Shown here: positions 15,121-26,461 of the stretch, piece by piece
Layout of the letters: every line of letters starts with the position of its first letter
How positions within the stretch are numbered: the first letter of the stretch is position 1
Origin: an uncultured Parachlamydiaceae bacterium
GTDB taxonomy: Bacteria > Chlamydiota > Chlamydiia > Chlamydiales > Parachlamydiaceae
Assembly: GCA_963742415.1 (NCBI GenBank)
Contig: CAVULX010000004.1
Span: forward strand, 416,001-480,000
DNA: 64,000 bases
Reading direction: 5' to 3'
Position numbers and translations under genes: made by a program
The notes under the pieces: model-generated
The model's database searches: none
Told to the model about the DNA's origin: nothing
Seen by the model: only the letters and a program-made list of their open reading frames with translations

Positions 15121-15279
15121 AGTGGGGGAAGGAAAAAACAGGATAAGCAAGATATTGAATAAAGAGTAAGAATATGTGGATATGATCAAGTTAAGACTTT
15201 TCAAAAACATCGTTTTTTCTTTTATCCTGCTTATCCAGACGTTTACGATCTTGCTTATCCTGTTTTTTCCTTCCCCACT
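15121..15279. repeat. Palindromic miniature element, family A (CAGGAT-type), copy 1
   Basis: Arms agtgggggaaggaaaaaacaggataagcaagat / atcttgcttatcctgttttttccttccccact; interior homologous to the 36807 copy in reverse orientation. Confidence 0.85.
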
Positions 15280-15313: not shown

Positions 15314-17845
15314 TTACCCGAAAAATGTTAACTGCATCGAATTGGGGAGGGATTTGACTTTTGGAGGGGGCCGTTTGGGTTTTGAAGGTTCGAAGGCATT
15401 TTTTCTGTTGGCATTTTCTTCCAAATGGACGAGGATCTCTTTCGCCCTGGCAATGACTGGCGAAGGGAGCCCTGCCAGCCTGCCGACGTGGATCCCATAG
15501 CTTTTGTCGGTTCCTCCGCGGACAATTTTTCGTAAAAAAACGATCAGGTCTTCACTTTCATGGACGGCCACATTGAAATTGACAGCACCGGGAATTTTTT
15601 CTTCCAGCTTTGTTAATTCCCAATAATGCGTGGCAAACAAGGTTTTGGCTTGCTTGTCTTCAGTCATCAAAAGATATTCGGCTACCGCCCAGGCGATCGA
15701 AATGCCATCATAAGTGCTTGTGCCTCTTCCAATTTCATCCAGGATCACCAAAGAGCGGGTGGTGGCATGGTGGAGAATGTTCGCTGTTTCGGTCATCTCG
15801 ACCATAAATGTCGACTGACCCCGCGTAAGATCATCGCTTGCCCCAATACGAGTAAAAATTTTATCGATAGTCCCAATCCGGCCGCTCTTTGCTGGAATAA
15901 AGGAACCTATTTGAGCCATGAGGGTAATCAGCGCCACCTGCCGAATATAGGTGGATTTTCCAGCCATATTGGGTCCTGTGATGAGCATCAGCCGGCAGTT
16001 TGCATCATTCAAATGGGTGTCGTTGGGGACAAATTTTTCAGACCTGTGAACTGTTTCGATGACAGGATGGCGCCCGCCTACGATCTCGAGAATGGCGCTG
16101 CCGTCAACTTGAGGGCGAATGTAATCATTGATCTTAGCGACCGAGGCTAATGCCTGCAAAACATCGATGCGGGCAATTGCTTGCGCGATTTTATAGATTT
16201 GTTCCGTGTATTTTGAAACCTCTTTTCGCAAAGAGGAAAACAGTTCTTGTTCAATACCGGTGATCCGTTCTTCGGCATTAAGGACTTTGTATTCATATGA
16301 TTTAAGTTCCGGGGTGATGAACCTTTCTGCATTAACAAGAGTTTGCCTTCTTTCAAAAGAGTCGGGCATTCGGTCGGCTTGCCCTTTGCTCACTTCGAGG
16401 TAATACCCGAACATTTTGTTGTAGCCTACTTTCAGGGTCTTGATGCCGGTTTGTTCCCTGAGTTGGTTCTGATACCGTGCAAGCCAAGATTTGCTATCGT
16501 GGCTTATGGTGCGCATTTCATCCAACTCTTGATAAAATCCATCCCGAAAAACTCCCCCATCGCTAAGCTTGGCTGGAGGGGAATCGACAAGAGCTTTGGC
16601 AATCAATTGAATGAGCTCCGGCAAGGGTGTCAAAGCTTTTTCCTCTTCAATGAGGAAAGAGGCCTCGCTCGAAAGCCCTTGCAAGGTGGATTTGATCAAC
16701 GGGATAGGCTCGAGAGAAAAACGTAAAGCTGCAATATCGCGGGGGGAAGCATATCCTGTGCTGATCTTTATGATCAGCCTTTCCAAATCGCGCACTCCAT
16801 TCAAAAGAGCTTCGAGTTGCTCCAAAGCTGTGGGATGATTAAAAAAGCTTTCTACCGCATCTTGCCGCTTGGCGATCTCTTGAGGGGAAAGCAAAGGCTG
16901 CTTGATCCACTGACGCAGGAGGCGCGCTCCCATGGGAGTGTGAGTATGGTCCAAAATGCCTAATAAAGTATTTTTGCGGGAACCATCGATTAAAGATTCG
17001 GTTAATTCCAGATTGCGTTGGGTGATCCGATCCAAAGACATAAAATGTGAGGTGCTATAAGTGTGGACCTCTTTGATATGTTCAAGGGGCAAATTAAGAG
17101 TATCGCGCAGATAGTTCAATAAAGCGCCTGCGGCATTGATCCCTGCTACCATCCCTTTGAGGCCAAAGCCATCAAGAGAAAGGACTTTGAATTGATTCAT
17201 TAGCGCATCGCAGGTCACTTGATGGTCGAATTGCCAATCATCCAGTTCGTTGAGTAAAAAATCATAAGATTTTTTTAGGTCGTCGAAAACAGGGGTGTGC
17301 TTTTCTTTAACTTTTTTGGGAATGATGAATTCGGCGGGGTGATAACGGTAAATTTCATTCAGAAGGTCTTGTTCGTCTTCGAATTCGACAACATTGAAGT
17401 CCGAAGTCGTTAAATCTAGAATCGCAAGGCCAAAGGTTGACCCGACGCGAGCGACCGAAGCAATGTAATTGTTGTCTTTGTCTGACAGCAAAGCGGAGTT
17501 AATCACCGTGCCTGGAGTGACCACGCGGACGACTTCCCGTTTGACTAAGCCTTTGGCTAGCTTGGGATCTTCGGTCTGCTCCGCAATGGCGACCCGGTAC
17601 CCTTTTGCAATCAATTTATCAATGTAGCCTTCGCTAGTGTGATAAGGAACGCCGCTCATCGGAACATCGGCGCGGCGGGTTAAAGTGAGATCGAGTTCCC
17701 TAGAAATTAAGGCGGCGTCATCATAGAAAGCTTCATAAAAGTCTCCCATGCGGAAAAAAAGGACAGCATTTTGAGCGATATTTTTGCAAGCATGCCACTG
17801 GACCATCATCGGGGAAACTTTTTGTTCCTGGAACTCTTCCGCCAT
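15314..17845 (-). CDS. mutS: DNA mismatch repair protein MutS
   Basis: FRMGDFYEAF, TGPNMAGKSTY, GQSTFMVEM, DEIGRGTST, FATHY, SYGIHVG. Confidence 0.98.
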   Translation of the reverse strand: MAEEFQEQKVSPMMVQWHACKNIAQNAVLFFRMGDFYEAFYDDAALISRELDLTLTRRADVPMSGVPYHTSEGYIDKLIAKGYRVAIAEQTEDPKLAKGLVKREVVRVVTPGTVINSALLSDKDNNYIASVARVGSTFGLAILDLTTSDFNVVEFEDEQDLLNEIYRYHPAEFIIPKKVKEKHTPVFDDLKKSYDFLLNELDDWQFDHQVTCDALMNQFKVLSLDGFGLKGMVAGINAAGALLNYLRDTLNLPLEHIKEVHTYSTSHFMSLDRITQRNLELTESLIDGSRKNTLLGILDHTHTPMGARLLRQWIKQPLLSPQEIAKRQDAVESFFNHPTALEQLEALLNGVRDLERLIIKISTGYASPRDIAALRFSLEPIPLIKSTLQGLSSEASFLIEEEKALTPLPELIQLIAKALVDSPPAKLSDGGVFRDGFYQELDEMRTISHDSKSWLARYQNQLREQTGIKTLKVGYNKMFGYYLEVSKGQADRMPDSFERRQTLVNAERFITPELKSYEYKVLNAEERITGIEQELFSSLRKEVSKYTEQIYKIAQAIARIDVLQALASVAKINDYIRPQVDGSAILEIVGGRHPVIETVHRSEKFVPNDTHLNDANCRLMLITGPNMAGKSTYIRQVALITLMAQIGSFIPAKSGRIGTIDKIFTRIGASDDLTRGQSTFMVEMTETANILHHATTRSLVILDEIGRGTSTYDGISIAWAVAEYLLMTEDKQAKTLFATHYWELTKLEEKIPGAVNFNVAVHESEDLIVFLRKIVRGGTDKSYGIHVGRLAGLPSPVIARAKEILVHLEENANRKNAFEPSKPKRPPPKVKSLPNSMQLTFFG

Positions 17846-17933
17846 AAGTCAATTCCTGAAAATTATGTCGCGATCATAGCAACAGAACGGCAAATCTTGC
17901 AATAAAAACATGCCGGTGTTTGTTTCAAGTTTC

Positions 17934-18025
17934 TGAGTCACTCTCGGTATAGCGCAGAGCCGGGGAGCCGGGGAGGCGCAGAGGGATCCCGGAGAAAGTA
18001 GGAAATTTCTAAATTGCCCTTATAA
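17934..18025 (+). repeat. Left copy of direct-repeat blocks flanking the 18100-20320 gene
   Basis: tgagtcactctcggtata matches 20318-20335 (16/18); ggagaaagtaggaaatttctaaattgcccttataa matches 20490-20524 (33/35). Confidence 0.8.
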
Positions 18026-18040
18026 TATAATATTTTAATA

Positions 18041-18070
18041 TTGAAAAAAAATATAAAAGTTTAGTATAAT
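18041..18070 (+). promoter_or_regulatory. Sigma70/sigma66-type promoter candidate
   Basis: TTGAAA-18 bp-TATAAT about 30 nt before ATG 18100; AT-rich context lowers specificity. Confidence 0.5.
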
Positions 18071-18099
18071 TTTTCATTATAATAAATAAAAATAAACAT

Positions 18100-20320
18100 A
18101 TGTTAGAATTTTTAAAATACTATTTTATACCTTCTTTAAATAATGGAGCTGCAGAGCTGCCAAATCTTTATCAAAAAGAAAGAAAAAAAAGTGCAGTTTA
18201 TTATTGTTTTGATCTTATAAATAACGTTTATTGTAATTTATCATCTTATGTTTATAAGAAATTTGAACATAAAATAAGCATTAAAAAACCTGATGAAAGA
18301 GTGCAAAAGATTGTTGACACGTTAGTTCAAGAAAAAGAATTCGATACACTTGAATCATTAAACTTCATAAAACCAGACACTATTGAAGAAAAGAAAGTTC
18401 CCTCTGTTGCGAAAGAAAAGAAAGTTACTGTTACAAAAGAAAAGAAAAAAGAGTTAACCAAAAATCTAGTAGATAAAATTATTCCCATTCTTTTTTCTTC
18501 AAAAAAAATAAAATCAGCGGCGATAGAGGTTTTGCCTTGCGGTGGACTAAAGATTTTGTCCAAAAAGATAGGGCAGCTGCCTCGTCTGACTTCTATTTGC
18601 AGTGATCCATGCATTTTTGGAAAAAATGAAATCTTTATACCTAATCATCAAATCTATCTGTTATTAAATCCCGCTATTGTGAAAGAAATAATTCAAGAAT
18701 TTCCGGATATGCAGCACTTTTTAGATGCCTGGACCAAACCTACTAAAGACAAAGATAAAGATCTTGATTCACTAATTTTTTCAGACGTTGATAGTGGAAA
18801 AACATTTCTTATGCAAAATGGAACAAAAACTGGAGAGTATGTTATCTGTAAAGGGTCTGAATCTTATGAATATATTGCCTTTATTCTTAAAGATGATAAA
18901 GCTGTGCAGCGAGTTGAATTTAAAAATCCATACGTAGTGCATGGAAGATGCTATATGCCTGAATATCTTATGCTTGCATCTCCTCTTTTACCACCGGGAG
19001 TATCTCTACCTGAAAATAAAACGAAATTGCATAATACCTTATTAAATTGGAAATCAAGGTCGTTTTTAAAAACCTTAAAACATTTTAGTAAGGATGCAGA
19101 TAAGCAAAATCAAATCAGTCATTTTTTCAGTGAATTAAGCTGGAATGGGTGTCAAAAAGAAATGATATCATGGATAAGTTATTTCACTGAAAAAATTAAT
19201 TTTTTCAATCCTTTGTACTTTTTAAAGGTATTTGCTCATCATTTTGGTTTGAAGGGGAGTTTTAAGGATATAGATTTAGAGGGCTTCGATAATAAACAAG
19301 CTCAATTTGAAATTCTAGACAATATTAAGACTTATCTGCCCAATTCTACTTTGATGGATAATGAAGAAAAAGAAGTTGTTTATAAGGCTTATCAAAGAAT
19401 GCTTTTTTATAATAAATTTTCAGAAAATGAGCTCGGTAAAAAAGCAAAAGCAGAAGCAATGTTTAAAGATATTGAAAATGGTTTACCTGTGACTATTGCA
19501 ACAGGTTGGCCTGGCCATTCTGTCAATGTCACTTTAACCAAAAGTTATCTTATTTACACAAATAAAGGAAGTCGAGAGAAAGGAAGAGCTGGATCGACGA
19601 TTTATCGAATTGAAAAGCCGTTGACTCCAGAAATTATCGAAGAGATCTTAAAGGGGGGAACGGAGACCTTCTTCACCCAAGAGTTAGTCGAAAAACTCGA
19701 GCTGGATAACATAAGATTTCATGAACGGGTAGATCAAGCTGTAGGAAATTGTGTATTCGCTAGTAATAAATCTTTTATTAAAAATATATTGATGATTCTG
19801 TATTTTGAAAAAAATACTCCTTATTCCTTATTCAGATGAATACAATGCATATAATGAGAAGCTTGAGAAAATTCATAAGGAATTTTCATCTTTTATACGA
19901 TTAATCCAAGTGAAGCAATGTCTAACATTGTTAAGAATAGTCAATTTCAGGTTTGAAGACATAAAACGTATATATACACTTCTAATCTTTGCTTTTGTAA
20001 AAATTGAACTTACTGAAAAGGTTAAAAATGAAATTCTCGAATTATTAAACGAACTTTTAATCGAACAAAAGAAGATCTATGATAAAAAATTAAATGATGA
20101 AAAAAATGGGAAATATAGTTATAATGGCAAATCTATGCGGCTAGATGAAATGAAGAAATCGATTGAATTTATGAAAATATTAGTGAAAATAATAAGCAAA
20201 TCTAAACAAAATGTACTAGACCTAATTGGATCTATTTATGAATTAATTGGTCCAGAAGCATATGACGAGCTATACAAAATCTTCAAAAAAAAGAAGATAG
20301 TTCCAAATCCCTATTTTTGA
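18100..20320 (+). CDS. Putative effector with AnkH-like cysteine-protease-fold domain; split by a frameshift at about 19808-19832
   Basis: ORFs 18100-19839 and 19805-20320; motifs TGWPGHS, IYTNKG, DQAVGNCVFAS; AT-rich. Confidence 0.65.
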
Positions 20321-20334
20321 GTGACGCTCGGTAT

Positions 20335-20367
20335 AAATTAAGAGTATCGCGCAGATAGTTTAATAAA
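20335..20367 (+). repeat. 33-bp copy of internal mutS sequence 17091-17123
   Basis: aaattaagagtatcgcgcagatagtttaataaa vs aaattaagagtatcgcgcagatagttcaataaa, 32/33 identical, same orientation. Confidence 0.9.
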
Positions 20368-20370
20368 CCC

Positions 20371-20395
20371 TGTCCAATTTTTGAGGGCAACCTCA
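20371..20395. mobile_element. Solo IS3-family-like terminal inverted repeat
   Basis: Reverse complement TGAGGTTGCCCTCAAAAATTGGACA resembles IS3/IS150-type ends (5'-TG...GGACA); no transposase nearby. Confidence 0.5.
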
Positions 20396-20419
20396 GACCA
20401 CCTCATAAAATCTTTTTAT

Positions 20420-20460
20420 CTTTGCGCCTTTGCGGCCTTTGCGGCCTTTGCGCCTCTGCG
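20420..20460. repeat. Short tandem repeat (CTTTGCG[G]C)x4 + CTCTGCG
   Basis: ctttgcgc ctttgcggc ctttgcggc ctttgcgc ctctgcg; complementary-type units gcgcagag at 17952-17984. Confidence 0.75.
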
Positions 20461-20615
20461 TTTAAAAGTTTATCCTAAATTTCTAAATTGGAGAAAATAG
20501 GAAATATCTAAATTGCCCTTATAAATAAATTTTTGTTGGTTGAAATAAATTGGTAATTGTATTACGATAAATAATTTGAATAATTATATGTTATTATTAA
20601 AAAATTCGTCGTCTC

Positions 20616-20852
20616 TGTTTGGATGTTTCTTAAATAAATTCCCTTCGGGAGTTTCCTAATGTTTGGACGTTTCTTAAATAAATTCCCTTCGGGAATTTCC
20701 TAATGGTCGTTGTTCCCAGAGTTGCGTTGTTTCGGGCTTCGCCCTCACAACTTACTCTGGGCTACCATTCCAGTATTCCCTTTGGGATTCATTTGTTAGG
20801 CATCGCCAAGGCGATGCCTAACAAAGCGGCGGCAAGCCGCCGCACTCCAAAA
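20616..20852. repeat. Composite REP-like cluster (family B plus GCGGC-type hairpin)
   Basis: 44-bp tandem duplication 20616-20703; 20713-20767 matches 52310-52364 (52/55); perfect 16-bp stem 20792-20825; gcggcggc-aa-gccgccgc-actccaaaa 20826-20852. Confidence 0.88.
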
Positions 20853-20871: not shown

Positions 20872-23800
20872 CTAGCCTTTGTTATTATCACAGTTGTGCC
20901 TGCCCCCTCCAGAACCGTATTGGGTGGTATTACCTTGTGCATTAATGCAAGTGGTCTGTCCTGATGTGTAGTGGACGTGGCTTGAACCGCTAGAATGTCG
21001 GTTATAATAGTTGACGTCTCCCCCAGCATATGATTTCCAAAAATGGGTTGTGTTTGGTTGTTGGCCGCTGCCACCGACATGTCCTTTCAAATCCAGCGTT
21101 TTATAGACTTCGCTAGTGACTCTGTTTACAGCATAGGTGGTTGCAGACATCCGCCCATTCGCATCCACTTGCACGATGTGGCGAGCGCCCATCCCCCCTG
21201 ATCCAGTGCCGCCAGATGAACCTCCGCCTCCACTCGATCCACCCCCTCTTCCCTGGACCAAATTTGGGTTCATGCTTACACCGCCATAGACTCTATAGCG
21301 GTCGTCTTTATGAAAGGCTGCTGGAACCCAGTATGTATTTCTAGTAATGGGAGTTACCCCAGCCGGGTTTGTGGCTATCCCCCCTTTTTCAATGGTTCTG
21401 CAGATCCTTAAGATTTCATTTCTATTGTAGGCCTCTATAGATCCTTTTAATAGATTGACCAAATAATCTTTTTGTCCATGATATAGCCAAGAACTAATGC
21501 CTGATTCAAGCGCACCATTATTGCTTGAGCCAATATGAAAGTCATTCGTTAGAATATTTTTAACTTGATTTAGGATATCTCGATCTAATCCAGCAGCTTG
21601 CTTAGAAAGACTTTGTTTACCCTCATTTAATTGCGCTTCCGTGAAATCATTACGAGTGAGATTTTGTTTCCTTATATTCTCATCTAACATTTTATTAATA
21701 TGATAGTCCGTGTTTAGAGGGAAGTCGCCAATCTTAGAACGCCAACCATCCAAAACAGCATTAACCTTTTCTACAGGGAAATCGACTGTTTCGCTAAGTT
21801 CTTTGGAATTTTTATAAATACTTATGGCTATATTTGCCATGGCCTGCAGCTTGGCCAGTTCAGGTATTCGCGCTAATTCGGGGAAAGGTTTTCCCAAATT
21901 TTTGTACTCTTTAGTCATTAGATTGGCAAATTTGGCTTCTTTAGAATCATCTTCTTCATCTTTTTCTGAATCGATTAGGTTTCCTTCTTCGTCATATTGC
22001 ATCAGATGTTTCTTTACGGATACTTCACATTCGCCGAATTCAACCGTAAGCTCATTGTTTTCTTTAGAGAAGGATTGCTGATACCAAAGTTTATCTACTT
22101 CAATCCAAAAGCGGTGGATTCTTCCTGCAGTATGTGGAACATTTCCCTCCTTGCGCAAGGATTCAAATTTTTCACGGAGGCCTGCGGGCATTCGTTTAAG
22201 TAAATTCGTGTCGTCACGTAATTCAAATGGCGCACGGGCGCTAATCTCTGTTCCCATGGACAACATTTTTAGAAGCAAGTCCGTGTGCAGCAACGTGGCC
22301 AGATAGTTGGTATTTGCTATTTGTTTGGGAGCAAAAAACAAATCTTGAAAAGGGTGGTAGTGCTTCTCATTGTCCGGGGGATCCAAAGAAAAGAAAGCGC
22401 TTGTAATGCCCCGGCCCATGATGTCTCTGACATCTTCCATGTCAAAGCGGCCTTGCATAGGATCTGTAGAATGACTGAACATGTATGAAATTTCTCCCGT
22501 TGAGAAGTTAAAGCGGATCCCATCGACTCTAAAGTAAGGTTGTTGATAGGGCAGATTTAATGGGATTGGCTTCTCAACATACCATCCTTCGGAATCTCTT
22601 GTTATTCCAGGCCAACTCATCAGACCTTCTACCGCTCCCATTGAATCCTTTTTTCTCTCTAATAGGGCTTGCATGGAGAGGGTCCTTTCCTCCTCAAATT
22701 TACTGTTCTCCTCTAATTTACTGTTCTCCTCATCTTCGCTTTCTTTATCACCCCTCCAACCAATCCATCTGCCTTCAAAAGAATAATATTGATAGTCGGC
22801 CTTTTTTGTTTGATCGGAAGAGGCAATCATTCGAGGCAAATGATCTTGCAGGAAAATACTATTAATTACGTCAAAATAGATCATGTCATAAATGTTAACG
22901 ATCTTGTCCAAGGCCAGAGGAAATAATTTTGACAGCTTTTCAGCTTCATTACGAAGGCTTTCTAAAAGCTTTTCTTCCCCTGAAGAAATTTGTGACGATG
23001 TTTCAAATACTTTAGATAAAATGGCGATGCTAGATCGAATGACATGAAGTTGTGTTGTGGGGTTGAGGTGGCTTCTTCCTAAGGTATAGGCAGTCGCAAC
23101 CAAATCTACAATGGCGCGCCGATAGGCGTAGATTTTTTTATAATCTTTTCTTGGGCTCAGCCCCTGCATTGTCTTCAAGAGCTCTAAAGCTGCTGACAAA
23201 GTACCATTGACAACACCCGCATGGGAGGGGATGGCTTGGCAAAAATCGATAAAGGACATTGCCGCTTCAAAAGAGGGTAATTTACCAATCGCTTTTTGGA
23301 ATTTAATGACCGTTCTTATCTCGGGAGTTTGCTTAAGTCTAGAGCTGTATTCACTTTTTGCTGCAGGTTGGCCACAAATCAGATCTGAAGGGGAGAGATT
23401 CTCGGGATACTCTTTTATTATTTTTTCTAAAACTTGAGAATAGACTCCTAATTTTTCTTCCCTTGGGTCGCCGAGCATGGCATCGATGAGATCTTTCATC
23501 GCCCCTTGCAATCCTGGACCTGAGGGATCGGCCAAGTGGGAGACCGAACGGACAAGGAGGAACGTGGACTTAAGGGGGCCATCTTCCAAATTGTCGATTT
23601 GAAATTGCTTTAGAGTTTCTTTAACTGCTTGTAAAGTAAATTTATTAATGCAGTTAAACAAGTAAAGATTTTTTTCCAGCGAGGTTTGATAAATCGCTGA
23701 ATGAAGGACGGTTTTAAAACCGTTGATGATGTAGGCATGAGACTGTTCGTACCACTTTTTATCTGCCTGGCTAGTACATTTGGGAGCGATATGCTCAAGG

Positions 23801-26196
23801 AGGCCTAACATTTCCTCGCCGGACAACTTCGTCTGGAGCAACATTTTAAGATAGGGGAGGCTATCCTGTTTTGAGGATTTCAAATGAGCAGTGATGAGCT
23901 TTTTGGCAGATTCATGGTTTTCATTTTTTGCCATTAGAGTTTGAATGATTTCTGCCAGGATATTTTCAAAAGCGGGGCAATGCTTCATGATCGCTAACTG
24001 GTAGAGAAGGCGGGTGGAGGAATCAACCAGTTGAGATTTGTCAAATATGGTTTTGTAAGCGTTTGCTTTTAAATAGCACCTTAGAGCCAAAGAATAGTAC
24101 TTCTCTTTGAATAATTGGCTGCCTATTTCTTCCAAGTTTTCTGCTCCCAATGTGTAACAAGCAAAGGCAGCTTCCTCATGCTTTGAACGCCATTTTGTCG
24201 CGAGATCTGACCAAGGCAAGCCTCCTGAAATCATCCGGTGGCAGATGAGTCCTTTAGTAAAATCTTTTTGATCAATGAAGACGTCTCGATGAGAAATGAG
24301 ATTTTCATCCATAAAATGGGATTTAAAAAAGGGAATGCAGAAAGCGCCGTCACACTTTTTGAGAAGTTCAACAAGGAAACCTAACCAAATTTCAAATTTT
24401 GGGTGGCTTAAAAAGGGCCAACGCAAATGGTCTTTATTGGGTTCGAATTGGATTTTTTTCCAATCACATGTAAATTGCTTATTCATCTGTTTAATGAATA
24501 ATTCAGCTCCTGCGACATCTAAGGGATTGATTGTTTCGATCCATTTTTGTTGTGAAAATTTTCCTAATTTAAAACACTGGATGGCCAGTTTGTACTTTTT
24601 TAGGGCTATGGCTTGCTTGGCTGCATTTTCTATAACCAAGGCTCTATTCGAACCCATTTTTGAGGCCAGGATGATGCAATATGGGGCGATTGCTTCGTTC
24701 GAGTGTTCCAAAGCTTTGTTGATGTATTGATCAGTGGAAAATTGTGCCTTCCTGTAGAATACTAGGGCTAAAAAGGGGTCGCTGTTTGCATAAGAATTCC
24801 CTTCTTTCACCCACTCTTCGGCTGTTTTTCTTAACTGATTAAGGCAAGTCATTGCCGGTTCATATTTTTTCATGCTGGCAAATCTTAGAGCTAACTTCAT
24901 CCAATCACCCCCTCCAAGCAGGTTGCATTGAATGGCTAGGTTAATTCGGTTATCCTCCAAAAATAGATCGACCCAATCTAGAAATTGTCGCTTGGTTGCA
25001 AAACTATAGAAGGACAATACATTTAAGTATGTCGGGGTAATAGATGCCCGGACCGATTTATAATTTTTGTTATCAAGGGGAGCAAGCCAGTCTGAAGCGG
25101 AGTTTTTTGTGAGCTTGGGCACACAGTCTGTGCATACGGCTGTAGGTTTCTCATAATCAGGCAGCTGTCTGAATTCTAGACAGCCGCTGCAATTGGCTGT
25201 GCCGCACGACGTACAGTTGGATTGTCTAAGAAAGAGGCCAAAGGACTTTTTGCAGCCGTTGCAACAAGTTGCATTTGTTACCAACTTTACATTATTCGGT
25301 TTCACAAAATGGACGGGAATATAACCCAACTCTTTTTTTAATTCGCTGGTTTCCGGCAATAAAGGGAGTTCGGTTCCATCGTCAAGCCGCCGCTGTTTTG
25401 TAAACAGACCAGGTGCAGCTTTTTTTAGAAATTGATTGATGATAACGCCTTTAACGAAATCGGGGACTTCAGCAAGGATAGGTTTACTATTCACGGGAGC
25501 GTCCAAAATAGTTTGAACCACTTTTTCACTATCGTTGGAAATTTTAGAAGGTTTTGCTGCTTTTGGTTTTGGGGCCTTTGCGGGTGTTGCGCCCTTTGCC
25601 GGAGTGGCGCCCCAAAGATCGGAATTCAAAATTTCTTTTTCGAGGACAACCATTTTAGGATTATAATTCCATTTCCTTGCTTCTTCCGGGATCGATTCGT
25701 TTAAAATTTGATCTACATTTGGAACTTCTGTTTTTAGTAATGCTTCGTAAGCTGTTTTTGGGGCATTGTGGGACGAGGGGATGAGACCCGATTTTTTCGG
25801 TGAGGTTTTTTGGAATTTTATCTGATCAGAATGGGGTGGGCCTTGGTTTTCCCAAAGATGAATTAATCCTCTGTAGATTTCAGACGGTCTTGGACCTCCA
25901 GGCAAATACCCTGATACATCCTCAGCGGAGGATTCCTCAACATCGATATCTTGTTTTTCATTGTAGTCTTTTCGTTTGGAAGGATCAGAAAGAGTAGCCC
26001 AAGCTGCATTAATTCGCTTCATGGCCTCATCCATTTGCTTTATCCTATCGGAAGATTGTCCGCTAGACTTGTCAGGATGGTGTCGCATCGCTGCCTTATA
26101 ATAGGCATTTTTAATCTGTCCCTGTGAAGCATTGGCTGATACGCCTAAAAGGGAATAATAATCGGACTCTTTACCTGTGGAAAAATTTGTATGCAT
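20872..26196 (-). CDS. 1774-aa multidomain protein: N-terminal DnaJ J-domain, FYVE-like Zn finger, helical repeats, Gly/Ser linker and small C-terminal domain
   Basis: DYYSLLGV..AYYKAAMRHHPDK; CNGCKKSFGLFLRQSNCTSCGTANCSGC..VCTDC; GRGGGSSGGGGSSGGTGSGG near the C-terminus. Confidence 0.85.
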   Translation of the reverse strand: MHTNFSTGKESDYYSLLGVSANASQGQIKNAYYKAAMRHHPDKSSGQSSDRIKQMDEAMKRINAAWATLSDPSKRKDYNEKQDIDVEESSAEDVSGYLPGGPRPSEIYRGLIHLWENQGPPHSDQIKFQKTSPKKSGLIPSSHNAPKTAYEALLKTEVPNVDQILNESIPEEARKWNYNPKMVVLEKEILNSDLWGATPAKGATPAKAPKPKAAKPSKISNDSEKVVQTILDAPVNSKPILAEVPDFVKGVIINQFLKKAAPGLFTKQRRLDDGTELPLLPETSELKKELGYIPVHFVKPNNVKLVTNATCCNGCKKSFGLFLRQSNCTSCGTANCSGCLEFRQLPDYEKPTAVCTDCVPKLTKNSASDWLAPLDNKNYKSVRASITPTYLNVLSFYSFATKRQFLDWVDLFLEDNRINLAIQCNLLGGGDWMKLALRFASMKKYEPAMTCLNQLRKTAEEWVKEGNSYANSDPFLALVFYRKAQFSTDQYINKALEHSNEAIAPYCIILASKMGSNRALVIENAAKQAIALKKYKLAIQCFKLGKFSQQKWIETINPLDVAGAELFIKQMNKQFTCDWKKIQFEPNKDHLRWPFLSHPKFEIWLGFLVELLKKCDGAFCIPFFKSHFMDENLISHRDVFIDQKDFTKGLICHRMISGGLPWSDLATKWRSKHEEAAFACYTLGAENLEEIGSQLFKEKYYSLALRCYLKANAYKTIFDKSQLVDSSTRLLYQLAIMKHCPAFENILAEIIQTLMAKNENHESAKKLITAHLKSSKQDSLPYLKMLLQTKLSGEEMLGLLEHIAPKCTSQADKKWYEQSHAYIINGFKTVLHSAIYQTSLEKNLYLFNCINKFTLQAVKETLKQFQIDNLEDGPLKSTFLLVRSVSHLADPSGPGLQGAMKDLIDAMLGDPREEKLGVYSQVLEKIIKEYPENLSPSDLICGQPAAKSEYSSRLKQTPEIRTVIKFQKAIGKLPSFEAAMSFIDFCQAIPSHAGVVNGTLSAALELLKTMQGLSPRKDYKKIYAYRRAIVDLVATAYTLGRSHLNPTTQLHVIRSSIAILSKVFETSSQISSGEEKLLESLRNEAEKLSKLFPLALDKIVNIYDMIYFDVINSIFLQDHLPRMIASSDQTKKADYQYYSFEGRWIGWRGDKESEDEENSKLEENSKFEEERTLSMQALLERKKDSMGAVEGLMSWPGITRDSEGWYVEKPIPLNLPYQQPYFRVDGIRFNFSTGEISYMFSHSTDPMQGRFDMEDVRDIMGRGITSAFFSLDPPDNEKHYHPFQDLFFAPKQIANTNYLATLLHTDLLLKMLSMGTEISARAPFELRDDTNLLKRMPAGLREKFESLRKEGNVPHTAGRIHRFWIEVDKLWYQQSFSKENNELTVEFGECEVSVKKHLMQYDEEGNLIDSEKDEEDDSKEAKFANLMTKEYKNLGKPFPELARIPELAKLQAMANIAISIYKNSKELSETVDFPVEKVNAVLDGWRSKIGDFPLNTDYHINKMLDENIRKQNLTRNDFTEAQLNEGKQSLSKQAAGLDRDILNQVKNILTNDFHIGSSNNGALESGISSWLYHGQKDYLVNLLKGSIEAYNRNEILRICRTIEKGGIATNPAGVTPITRNTYWVPAAFHKDDRYRVYGGVSMNPNLVQGRGGGSSGGGGSSGGTGSGGMGARHIVQVDANGRMSATTYAVNRVTSEVYKTLDLKGHVGGSGQQPNTTHFWKSYAGGDVNYYNRHSSGSSHVHYTSGQTTCINAQGNTTQYGSGGGRHNCDNNKG

Positions 26197-26338: not shown

Positions 26339-26461
26339 AACAGGATAAGCATGATCGTAAACGGCAAGATGCGAAGAATACATTAAAAAAAAATTCCCTT
26401 CGGGATTTTTTTTTTAATTTATCCCGCTTATCCTGCCGTTTACGATCATGCTTATCCTGTT
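26339..26461. repeat. Palindromic miniature element, family A, copy 2
   Basis: aacaggataagcatgatcgtaaacggcaagat / atcctgccgtttacgatcatgcttatcctgtt; central aaattcccttcggga hairpin shared with family B. Confidence 0.88.

Follow-up and report, generated by a model that had tools for sequence, protein, structure and literature searches.

How does a short piece of a housekeeping gene come to lie, nearly unchanged, in an intergenic spacer some kilobases away from that gene, and might it do anything once there? The question is raised by 33 nt within a stretch of 64,000 nucleotides (hereafter, the window) from an uncultured Parachlamydiaceae bacterium, the assembly of which consists of 2,690,262 bases in four contigs. 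On the plus strand, positions 20335-20367 of the window read AAATTAAGAGTATCGCGCAGATAGTTTAATAAA. They are identical at 32 of 33 bases to positions 17091-17123 of the same strand, in which base 27 is C where the copy has T. The alignment runs through 26 exact bases, the C/T difference (17117 versus 20361), and six further exact bases. The segment at 17091-17123 belongs to mutS. A first-pass annotation of this locus had reported the identity, along with a spacing of 3.2 kb, a minus-strand mutS (15314-17845), and a position of the copy 15 nt past the stop codon of what was described as an effector. These claims hold. Repeat comparison as well as searches of both window and genome return the same 32/33 match; the spacing from donor to copy measures 3,244 nt, with the two segments in direct orientation; mutS is on the strand indicated; and the stop codon in question, which is that of the ORF at 19805-20320, ends 14 nt ahead of the copy.

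The duplicated segment and its edges

The duplication is real, and is far beyond what chance would provide. The 33-mer is present twice in the window when up to three mismatches are allowed, and 0 of 100 shuffles gave two matches (mean of 0.00). Over the assembly as a whole there are only two matches to the 33-mer which exceed 13 nt. The edges of the copy, in addition, are sharp. Beyond the 33 nt, donor and copy flanks are 23-30% identical, i.e., at the random level, and gapped blast with a word size of 7 detects nothing else around the copy that is collinear with mutS. With sharp edges such as these, and with flanks that are unrelated, what is seen is not how a larger duplicate undergoing decay would look. 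No ORF of at least 50 aa, on either strand, runs over the copy. The features of the locus are collected in Table 1, together with two comparable segments from elsewhere in the genome that are considered further below.

Table 1. Features of the locus, and the isolated patches of the genome. Positions are those of the window except where one of the four contigs of the assembly (C3 or C4) is named.
Feature	Position	Strand	Description
mutS, donor gene	15314-17845	-	Intact, 843 aa; Pfam MutS domains I-V
Donor segment	17091-17123	-	mutS codons 241-252 (ALLNYLRDTLNL, domain II)
Orphan gene, two overlapping frames (18100-19839, 19805-20320)	18100-20320	+	3' end enters P arm
Arm of P family, dispersed palindromic repeat	20302-20336	+	Holds stop codon of upstream ORF
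33-nt copy (mutS patch)	20335-20367	+	33 nt, 32/33 identical to mutS segment, direct, 3,244 nt from its source
Single-copy stretch between mutS copy and 9-mer module	20368-20419	+	Small hairpin without U-tail
9-nt tandem repeat, CTTTGCGGC x 4.8	20420-20460	+	Tandem Repeats Finder; 'solo arm' of dispersed module
Dispersed B module	20477-20602	+	Also upstream of orphan ORF at 17991-18117
44-nt unit x 2 of multicopy repeat with small hairpin	20616-20705	+	Tandem Repeats Finder
Perfect palindrome, 16-nt arms	20792-20825		Repeat search
MlaD patch	C4:346002-346052, source C4:348702-348752		51 nt (50/51); source is an MlaD-domain gene, 2,700 nt away
Glycosyltransferase patch	C3:659834-659871, source C3:657724-657761		38 nt (36/38); source is a Group-1 glycosyltransferase gene, 2,110 nt away

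A spacer made up of repeats

The copy is found within a spacer of 550 nt, extending from the orphan ORF to a gene encoding a protein with DnaJ and FYVE domains. Multicopy dispersed repeats make up that spacer in mosaic fashion, and among its segments only the mutS piece matches a gene. The left edge of the copy coincides with the end of an arm of a palindromic repeat, termed here the P family. This family has approximately ten other copies in the genome, several of them present as inverted pairs, and also turns up in 6 of the 60 genomes examined from other members of this bacterial family. The other P copies of this genome end in ...CGGTATA(A) and diverge from one another beyond that point, with one of the ten continuing as AATT. 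Judged against those copies, the left junction and the end of the P arm may share 2-5 nt of microhomology.

To the right of the copy is a single-copy stretch, that is, one which upon genome blast (E up to 0.01) matches itself alone, and in which no terminator is predicted. Following that, and 52 nt downstream of the copy, is a tandem repeat belonging to a module built from the 9-mer CTTTGCGSC. This module is present at 21 genome loci, at many of these as inverted pairs. What had been described as an 18-bp direct-repeat block in front of the copy resolves into the P arm (20302-20336) plus a weak resemblance to the AATTTTTGAG core found beyond the copy.

Further along is the module that we call B. 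The two B copies of this locus, at 20477-20602 and at 17991-18117, are 80% identical over 60 nt and 73% identical over 130 nt, and the downstream one finds its best match at C4:119040-118994 (95.7% over 47 nt). Additional copies of the B module are seen at C4:988617 and C4:119027, and the upstream copy at this locus (17991-18117) includes a promoter-like site scoring 11/12. A role as a shared promoter or leader is possible for the B module. Terminator-like hairpins are present as well, one within the 44-nt repeat (20636-20654) and one, on the minus strand, just after the perfect palindrome (20826-20843).

On the upstream side of the spacer, the frame of the orphan gene shifts where a stretch of 7 nt is perfectly duplicated in tandem (19818-19833; period 7, 2.3 copies). 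To judge from its sequence, this lesion is of a slippage type and not a homopolymer error. Pfam assigns no family above cut-off to the orphan protein; in the ESM Atlas this protein has only matches scoring 0.80 or less, and these to unnamed clusters; and its sole database match is itself, with no paralogue in the genome. On the downstream side (20872-26196, minus strand) is the gene for the DnaJ-FYVE protein, which has 1,774 aa, with DnaJ at residues 12-79 and the FYVE zinc finger, a eukaryote-type lipid-binding domain, at residues 308-363. Just outside of mutS and the DnaJ-FYVE gene, respectively, are long palindromes of a CAGGATAAGCA family (15125-15276 and 26339-26461), which have 29-nt perfect arms, or 60-nt arms at 87%, and which as direct copies (89% over 56 nt) bracket a block of 11 kb. 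Rfam returns only sub-threshold plant microRNA matches to these palindromes.

mutS as donor

The intergenic copy derives from mutS and not the reverse, since mutS is both intact and single copy in the genome, and since residues 241-252 of its protein align in 7 of 7 relatives checked. All five of the Pfam MutS domains match, with E values ranging from 6.6e-28 to 3.8e-85, and a mutS is found in 21 of 21 genomes searched, i.e., those of 20 relatives as well as that of the bacterium itself. The nearest named relatives of this MutS are from metagenome bins of Chlamydiae and Rhabdochlamydiaceae, at 57-58% identity, which marks the bacterium as chlamydia-like. The one base by which donor and copy differ is the third of a leucine codon, which reads TTG in mutS and TTA in the copy. 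One difference in 33 points to an event that would be young.

Other genomes were compared as well. Neither 30 relatives nor 60 other family genomes, all of them from other genera, yielded the junction created by the copy. Six relatives were looked at more locally, and no mutS fragments are present in their mutS neighbourhoods. Two ORFs found downstream of mutS do recur in those neighbourhoods, one of them in 5/6 and the other in 3/6, and the orphan and DnaJ-FYVE genes are found in 0/6 of them (±8 kb). An exact 21-mer core of the copy has 0 matches in genome contigs and 0 in metagenome contigs, as searched in records from which those of this same genome possibly were excluded. A junction that is unseen in relatives, in combination with a single difference in 33, fits with a young, lineage-specific event.

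Further patches in the same genome

Is the mutS copy unique in kind? Exact matches of at least 24 nt that are present in two copies number 700 genome-wide, of which 54 are isolated, meaning that their flanks are unrelated and that no other match neighbours them. Three of those 54 have copies which are spaced by 300-10,000 nt, and all three are direct. A self-blast was considered too, retaining low-copy matches of 24-150 nt for which one copy is in an ORF of at least 150 aa and the other is intergenic. This yielded 12 gene-to-intergenic matches, two of them distant and the other ten within 10 kb, with 10/10 of the latter direct. Seven of these ten local matches are parts of longer or multi-piece duplicates which are decaying, and are not counted here as patches. 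There are, then, three sharp, isolated patches, of 33, 38, and 51 nt, which lie 2.1-3.2 kb from their sources. A fourth candidate (C3:742619 to 737990) was dropped as a paralogous repeat, its flanks displaying codon-periodic similarity. A scan using k=14 seeds turned up mostly palindromic repeat families, and its isolation filter dropped the mutS pair itself, given the B module nearby; counts from that scan are not used.

The MlaD patch resembles the mutS patch in its placement. It directly abuts a CTTTGCGSC module (C4:346052), its side and orientation relative to the module being those of the mutS patch too. Two of the three patches thereby lie 0-52 nt upstream of this module, so that, of 20 intergenic loci of the module which were tested, two have a patch. 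The probability of two of three patches falling by chance within module flanks is about 7e-5, a rough and post hoc figure that is based on approximately 2.2 kb of flanks out of approximately 0.47 Mb of intergenic sequence. At its right junction the MlaD patch overlaps the ATTTTTC leader which the module usually has, for a microhomology of 7 nt. The MlaD patch is also 50 nt upstream of an ankyrin-repeat gene.

No consistent fork polarity is seen among the patches: by GC skew, both of those on C4 lie in one replichore, with one copy preceding its source and the other following it. Nor is there systematic capture at the P repeat. The first-pass annotation had raised the possibility that other copies of the repeat might also be followed by pieces of genes, but a core pattern search finds a gene piece at just 1 of 11 P-arm copies, namely that of the mutS locus.

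Probable origin as a templated patch

Templated insertions are recognized as short, near-identical copies of a nearby donor that itself is intact, with edges that are sharp, and the mutS copy has each of these features. We think it likely that the 33-nt segment is a recent and probably neutral patch of this kind, one which arose at a fragile cluster of repeats when a template was switched or a break was repaired. Of the two kinds of scar put forward in the first-pass annotation, an IS-mediated one or instead a template-switch one, it is the second that is best supported, fitting as it does with the sharp edges, with the start of the copy at a repeat arm, and with the existence of sister patches. 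The IS-mediated origin is not supported, there being no rve transposase in an assembly that is 84% complete and the supposed IS end being single copy.

The patch might have come about as follows. Within the cluster of palindromic and tandem repeats that is downstream of the orphan gene, a replication fork would have stalled or the DNA would have broken. A free 3' end could then have annealed, by way of a few bases of microhomology, to mutS, which is 3.2 kb off and on the same strand. Approximately 30 nt would have been copied, with the end subsequently rejoined at its original site. The route taken could have been a replicative template switch, that is, out and back, or it could instead have been end joining with copied filler. 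By either route mutS would have served solely as a template, and would have been left intact. That all three of the patches are direct leans toward the replicative switch, as capture of free fragments should give rise to either orientation; the chance of three out of three is 1 in 8.

Alternative explanations

The same sequence could in principle be arrived at by a larger event that was followed by a loss. That is, positions 17091-20334 (3,244 nt) may have been duplicated head to tail, with a later deletion leaving only the first 33 nt of the second copy. The end sequence of such a duplication-then-deletion is indistinguishable from that of a template switch. The two mutS copies are both direct and local, as this would require; the genome does hold several decaying tandem duplicates, with 7 of the 10 local matches found in longer or multi-piece ones; and a B module is found, in the same order, after both of the copies (17991, 20490). 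The B pair, however, is 73-80% identical versus 97% for the mutS piece, and the second B copy has a better match elsewhere (95.7%), which argues against a single event as the source of both pairs. In addition, no resemblance to the orphan gene is seen beyond 20602, and the model would require two large events whose outcome was very precise. We consider a remnant of tandem segmental duplication to be unlikely.

A different kind of alternative concerns not so much how the copy arose as whether it is functional. The first-pass annotation observed that plus-strand read-through RNA from this region would be complementary to mutS mRNA, and the strands are indeed as that requires. Such an RNA could act in trans, pairing over 33 nt with mutS codons 241-252 and thereby lowering MutS and raising the mutation rate. 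The geometry would permit this, with mutS on the minus strand and the copy direct. No plus-strand terminator-like site is predicted from the stop at 20320 up to 20636, a promoter-like site (11/12) is located upstream of the orphan gene at 18041-18070, and the lone mismatch would be a G-U wobble in an RNA duplex. If local transcripts run through them, furthermore, then all three of the isolated patches would be antisense to their sources, and this 3/3 orientation, like the G-U mismatch, is compatible with function too. That orientation nevertheless has a chance probability of 1 in 8, and for the MlaD patch a TATAAT box, as read by eye from the sequence, lies downstream, such that the patch would not be transcribed from it.

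Other results stand against function at the mutS locus in particular. Rfam, at E values of up to 1, has no match within 20300-20480; the predicted fold is no better than that of shuffles (z = -0.86); the gene from which read-through would occur changes frame at the 7-nt duplication; and the element is seen in 0/60 other genomes of the family and 0/6 mutS neighbourhoods. Antisense action of the copy on mutS seems to us quite improbable. We set aside as well the suggestion that a captured spacer or guide is damping mismatch repair, given a gene piece at only 1/11 P arms, no Cas1 in an assembly that is 84% complete, no Rfam match, an ordinary fold, and a junction found in 0/60 genomes. Were the copy to be transcribed, then it would represent a ready-made antisense against mismatch repair, which would be much more interesting than a scar; if true, mismatch repair in an intracellular bacterium would be knocked down naturally, by a sequence acquired locally. 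A wider form of this idea is that the mutS and MlaD pieces together make up a class of chimeric elements, positioned upstream of the CTTTGCGSC module and antisense to their source genes, with the mutS repeat serving also as a deletion fuse. We would deem this very improbable.

Might the 33 nt instead be missing from the real chromosome, i.e., as an artefact of assembly or polishing? Marker genes put the completeness of the assembly at 84%, and a uvrA-like region of it, at least, is broken into many frames. Assemblers, though, normally do not place a 33-nt near-exact copy from 3.2 kb off between flanks that are unique. The copy also differs from its source at one base, and two independent, like events are seen elsewhere in the genome. 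An artefact of this sort strikes us as highly improbable. As for the uvrA-like region itself (C4:1291837-1295640, judged by eye), its first approximately 3.8 kb are split into many short ORFs with changing frames, and the 690-aa ORF that comes after the broken stretch (C4:1295522-1297591) is open. This region may reflect the decay of a repair gene or, instead, assembly that is poor locally.

It is harder still to credit a mobile element, whether as capture in association with an IS or as the attachment-site duplication of an integrated element. The copy does abut a dispersed repeat arm, the two copies do bracket a lineage-specific gene which is missing beside mutS in the six relatives examined, and a single Y1-transposase gene is present elsewhere in the genome. 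The IS-like end (TG..CA, 20371-20399) which the first-pass annotation had placed next to the copy proves to be single copy in the window as well as in the genome, however, and to be without an inverted partner. Searched on both strands with up to three mismatches, it has one match in the window, and genome-wide it matches only itself. Transposases of the rve type (PF00665) have 0 matches in this four-contig assembly, which is 84% complete by marker genes, and control genomes were matched in the same search; ORFs neighbouring the copy have no transposase families. An IS3-family end was rejected, there being neither an rve transposase nor multicopy terminal inverted repeats. The orphan protein lacks a recombinase domain scoring above cut-off (at best 15.2 bits versus 22), and a gene piece follows 1/11 of the repeat-arm copies only.

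An integrated element meets with the additional difficulty of what it would have to contain. Tyrosine recombinases (PF00589) have six matches in the genome, of which none is within 300 kb of the locus on its contig, the nearest thus being more than 300 kb off. With no integrase nearby, and with the bracketed DNA including mutS codons 1-240, attachment-site duplication was rejected. Those codons align with MutS of relatives from residue 5-12 onward, and in these relatives the bracketed 5' third of mutS adjoins the remainder of the gene without a break. As the bracketed segment includes these essential first 240 codons, it cannot be an inserted element.

Two other labels were tried and rejected. 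One is that of a CRISPR spacer, for which the flanks are unsuitable: on the left is the P arm and on the right there is only an approximately 10-nt AATTTTTGAG core in common with it, and Cas1 (PF01867) has 0 matches in the assembly, 84% complete by marker genes. The other is that of a diversity-generating retroelement (DGR). DGRs consist of a pair of repeats that are of about 100 nt or more and that have many, adenine-specific differences, with the variable copy found at the 3' end of the target gene. Here the pair is of 33 nt with one difference, it involves codons 241-252 of an 843-codon housekeeping gene, and reverse transcriptase (PF00078) has 0 matches in the genome.

Lastly, 33-nt direct repeats, in bracketing the 5' third of mutS with 26 exact bases, which is about the minimum length for homologous recombination, could serve as a selected 'fuse' by which a rare deletion of 3,244 nt removes the mutS promoter and codons 1-240 and so gives rise to mutator subclones, but any such repeat would have the same consequence, nothing suggests selection, the deletion would be irreversible, and the other two patches bracket unrelated genes, which leaves this with hardly any probability.

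Comparison with known systems

Among bacterial systems, what is seen at this locus has a likeness to the acquisition of CRISPR spacers, in that a gene piece of approximately 30 nt lies beside a repeat of approximately 35 nt. Unlike with CRISPR, the locus has neither an array nor a second identical repeat, and no Cas1 is found in the assembly. The other ten copies of the repeat, moreover, are without captured pieces, and the patches vary in length (33, 38, and 51 nt).

There is a likeness as well to REP sequences, or REPINs, and their associated RAYT transposases. As with those, the region which accepted the patch is one of dispersed palindromic arms, and the genome has one Y1_Tnp gene which is found between inverted repeats. 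In this case, by contrast, the repeat families at the locus of the mutS copy differ from the family flanking the Y1 gene. We know of no indication that the mobility of REPINs carries gene fragments. The Y1-transposase (PF01797) gene itself is located at C4:1304441-1304755, with its inverted repeats at 1304262-1304354 and 1304853-1304945 (86/93 matching). These flanking repeats share, by eye and unaligned, a CCCAGGCCTTCGCTTCGC motif with an abundant palindromic family, and the Y1 gene along with its flanking repeats resembles a RAYT with REPINs.

Comparable too is the capture of DNA by nonhomologous end joining (NHEJ). Adjoining the Ku gene of this genome is one encoding an 804-aa LigD with phosphoesterase, ligase, and primase-polymerase domains (C4:621314-624545). 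Ku and LigD together amount to a complete two-component end-joining system, present here in a chlamydia-like genome. In Sinorhizobium meliloti, NHEJ by Ku and LigD inserts DNA fragments at chromosomal breaks (PMC6379672), and what was captured there was a supplied, linear, exogenous cassette rather than a copy of a nearby locus. The genome with the mutS patch has Ku and LigD in common with that system. The present case differs in that the sequence copied is chromosomal and nearby, and in that all three of the patches are direct.

In eukaryotes, by contrast to bacteria, in the genomes of which they are rarely catalogued, templated patches are well documented. Templated insertions arising through template switching are well described mainly from eukaryotes, as FoSTeS/MMBIR and as polymerase-theta end joining (PMC8421209, PMC11724301). 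The literature searched yielded no paper on such patches in Chlamydiae. The mutS patch differs from its eukaryotic counterparts in being found on a bacterial chromosome, in having a donor that is 3.2 kb off, in being a direct copy, and in being deduced from one static genome. It is like them in consisting of tens of nucleotides copied from nearby into a fragile site, with sharp edges, with what may be microhomology at its left junction, and with a donor that is intact. Taken by itself, the patch is a small mutational scar. What lends it a modest interest is that such patches recur beside one and the same repeat module, and do so in a bacterium with Ku and LigD. The mutS patch, together with the other two of this genome, offers a clean example from nature of short templated patches situated at palindromic or tandem repeats between genes; such patches otherwise are known chiefly from eukaryotic cells.
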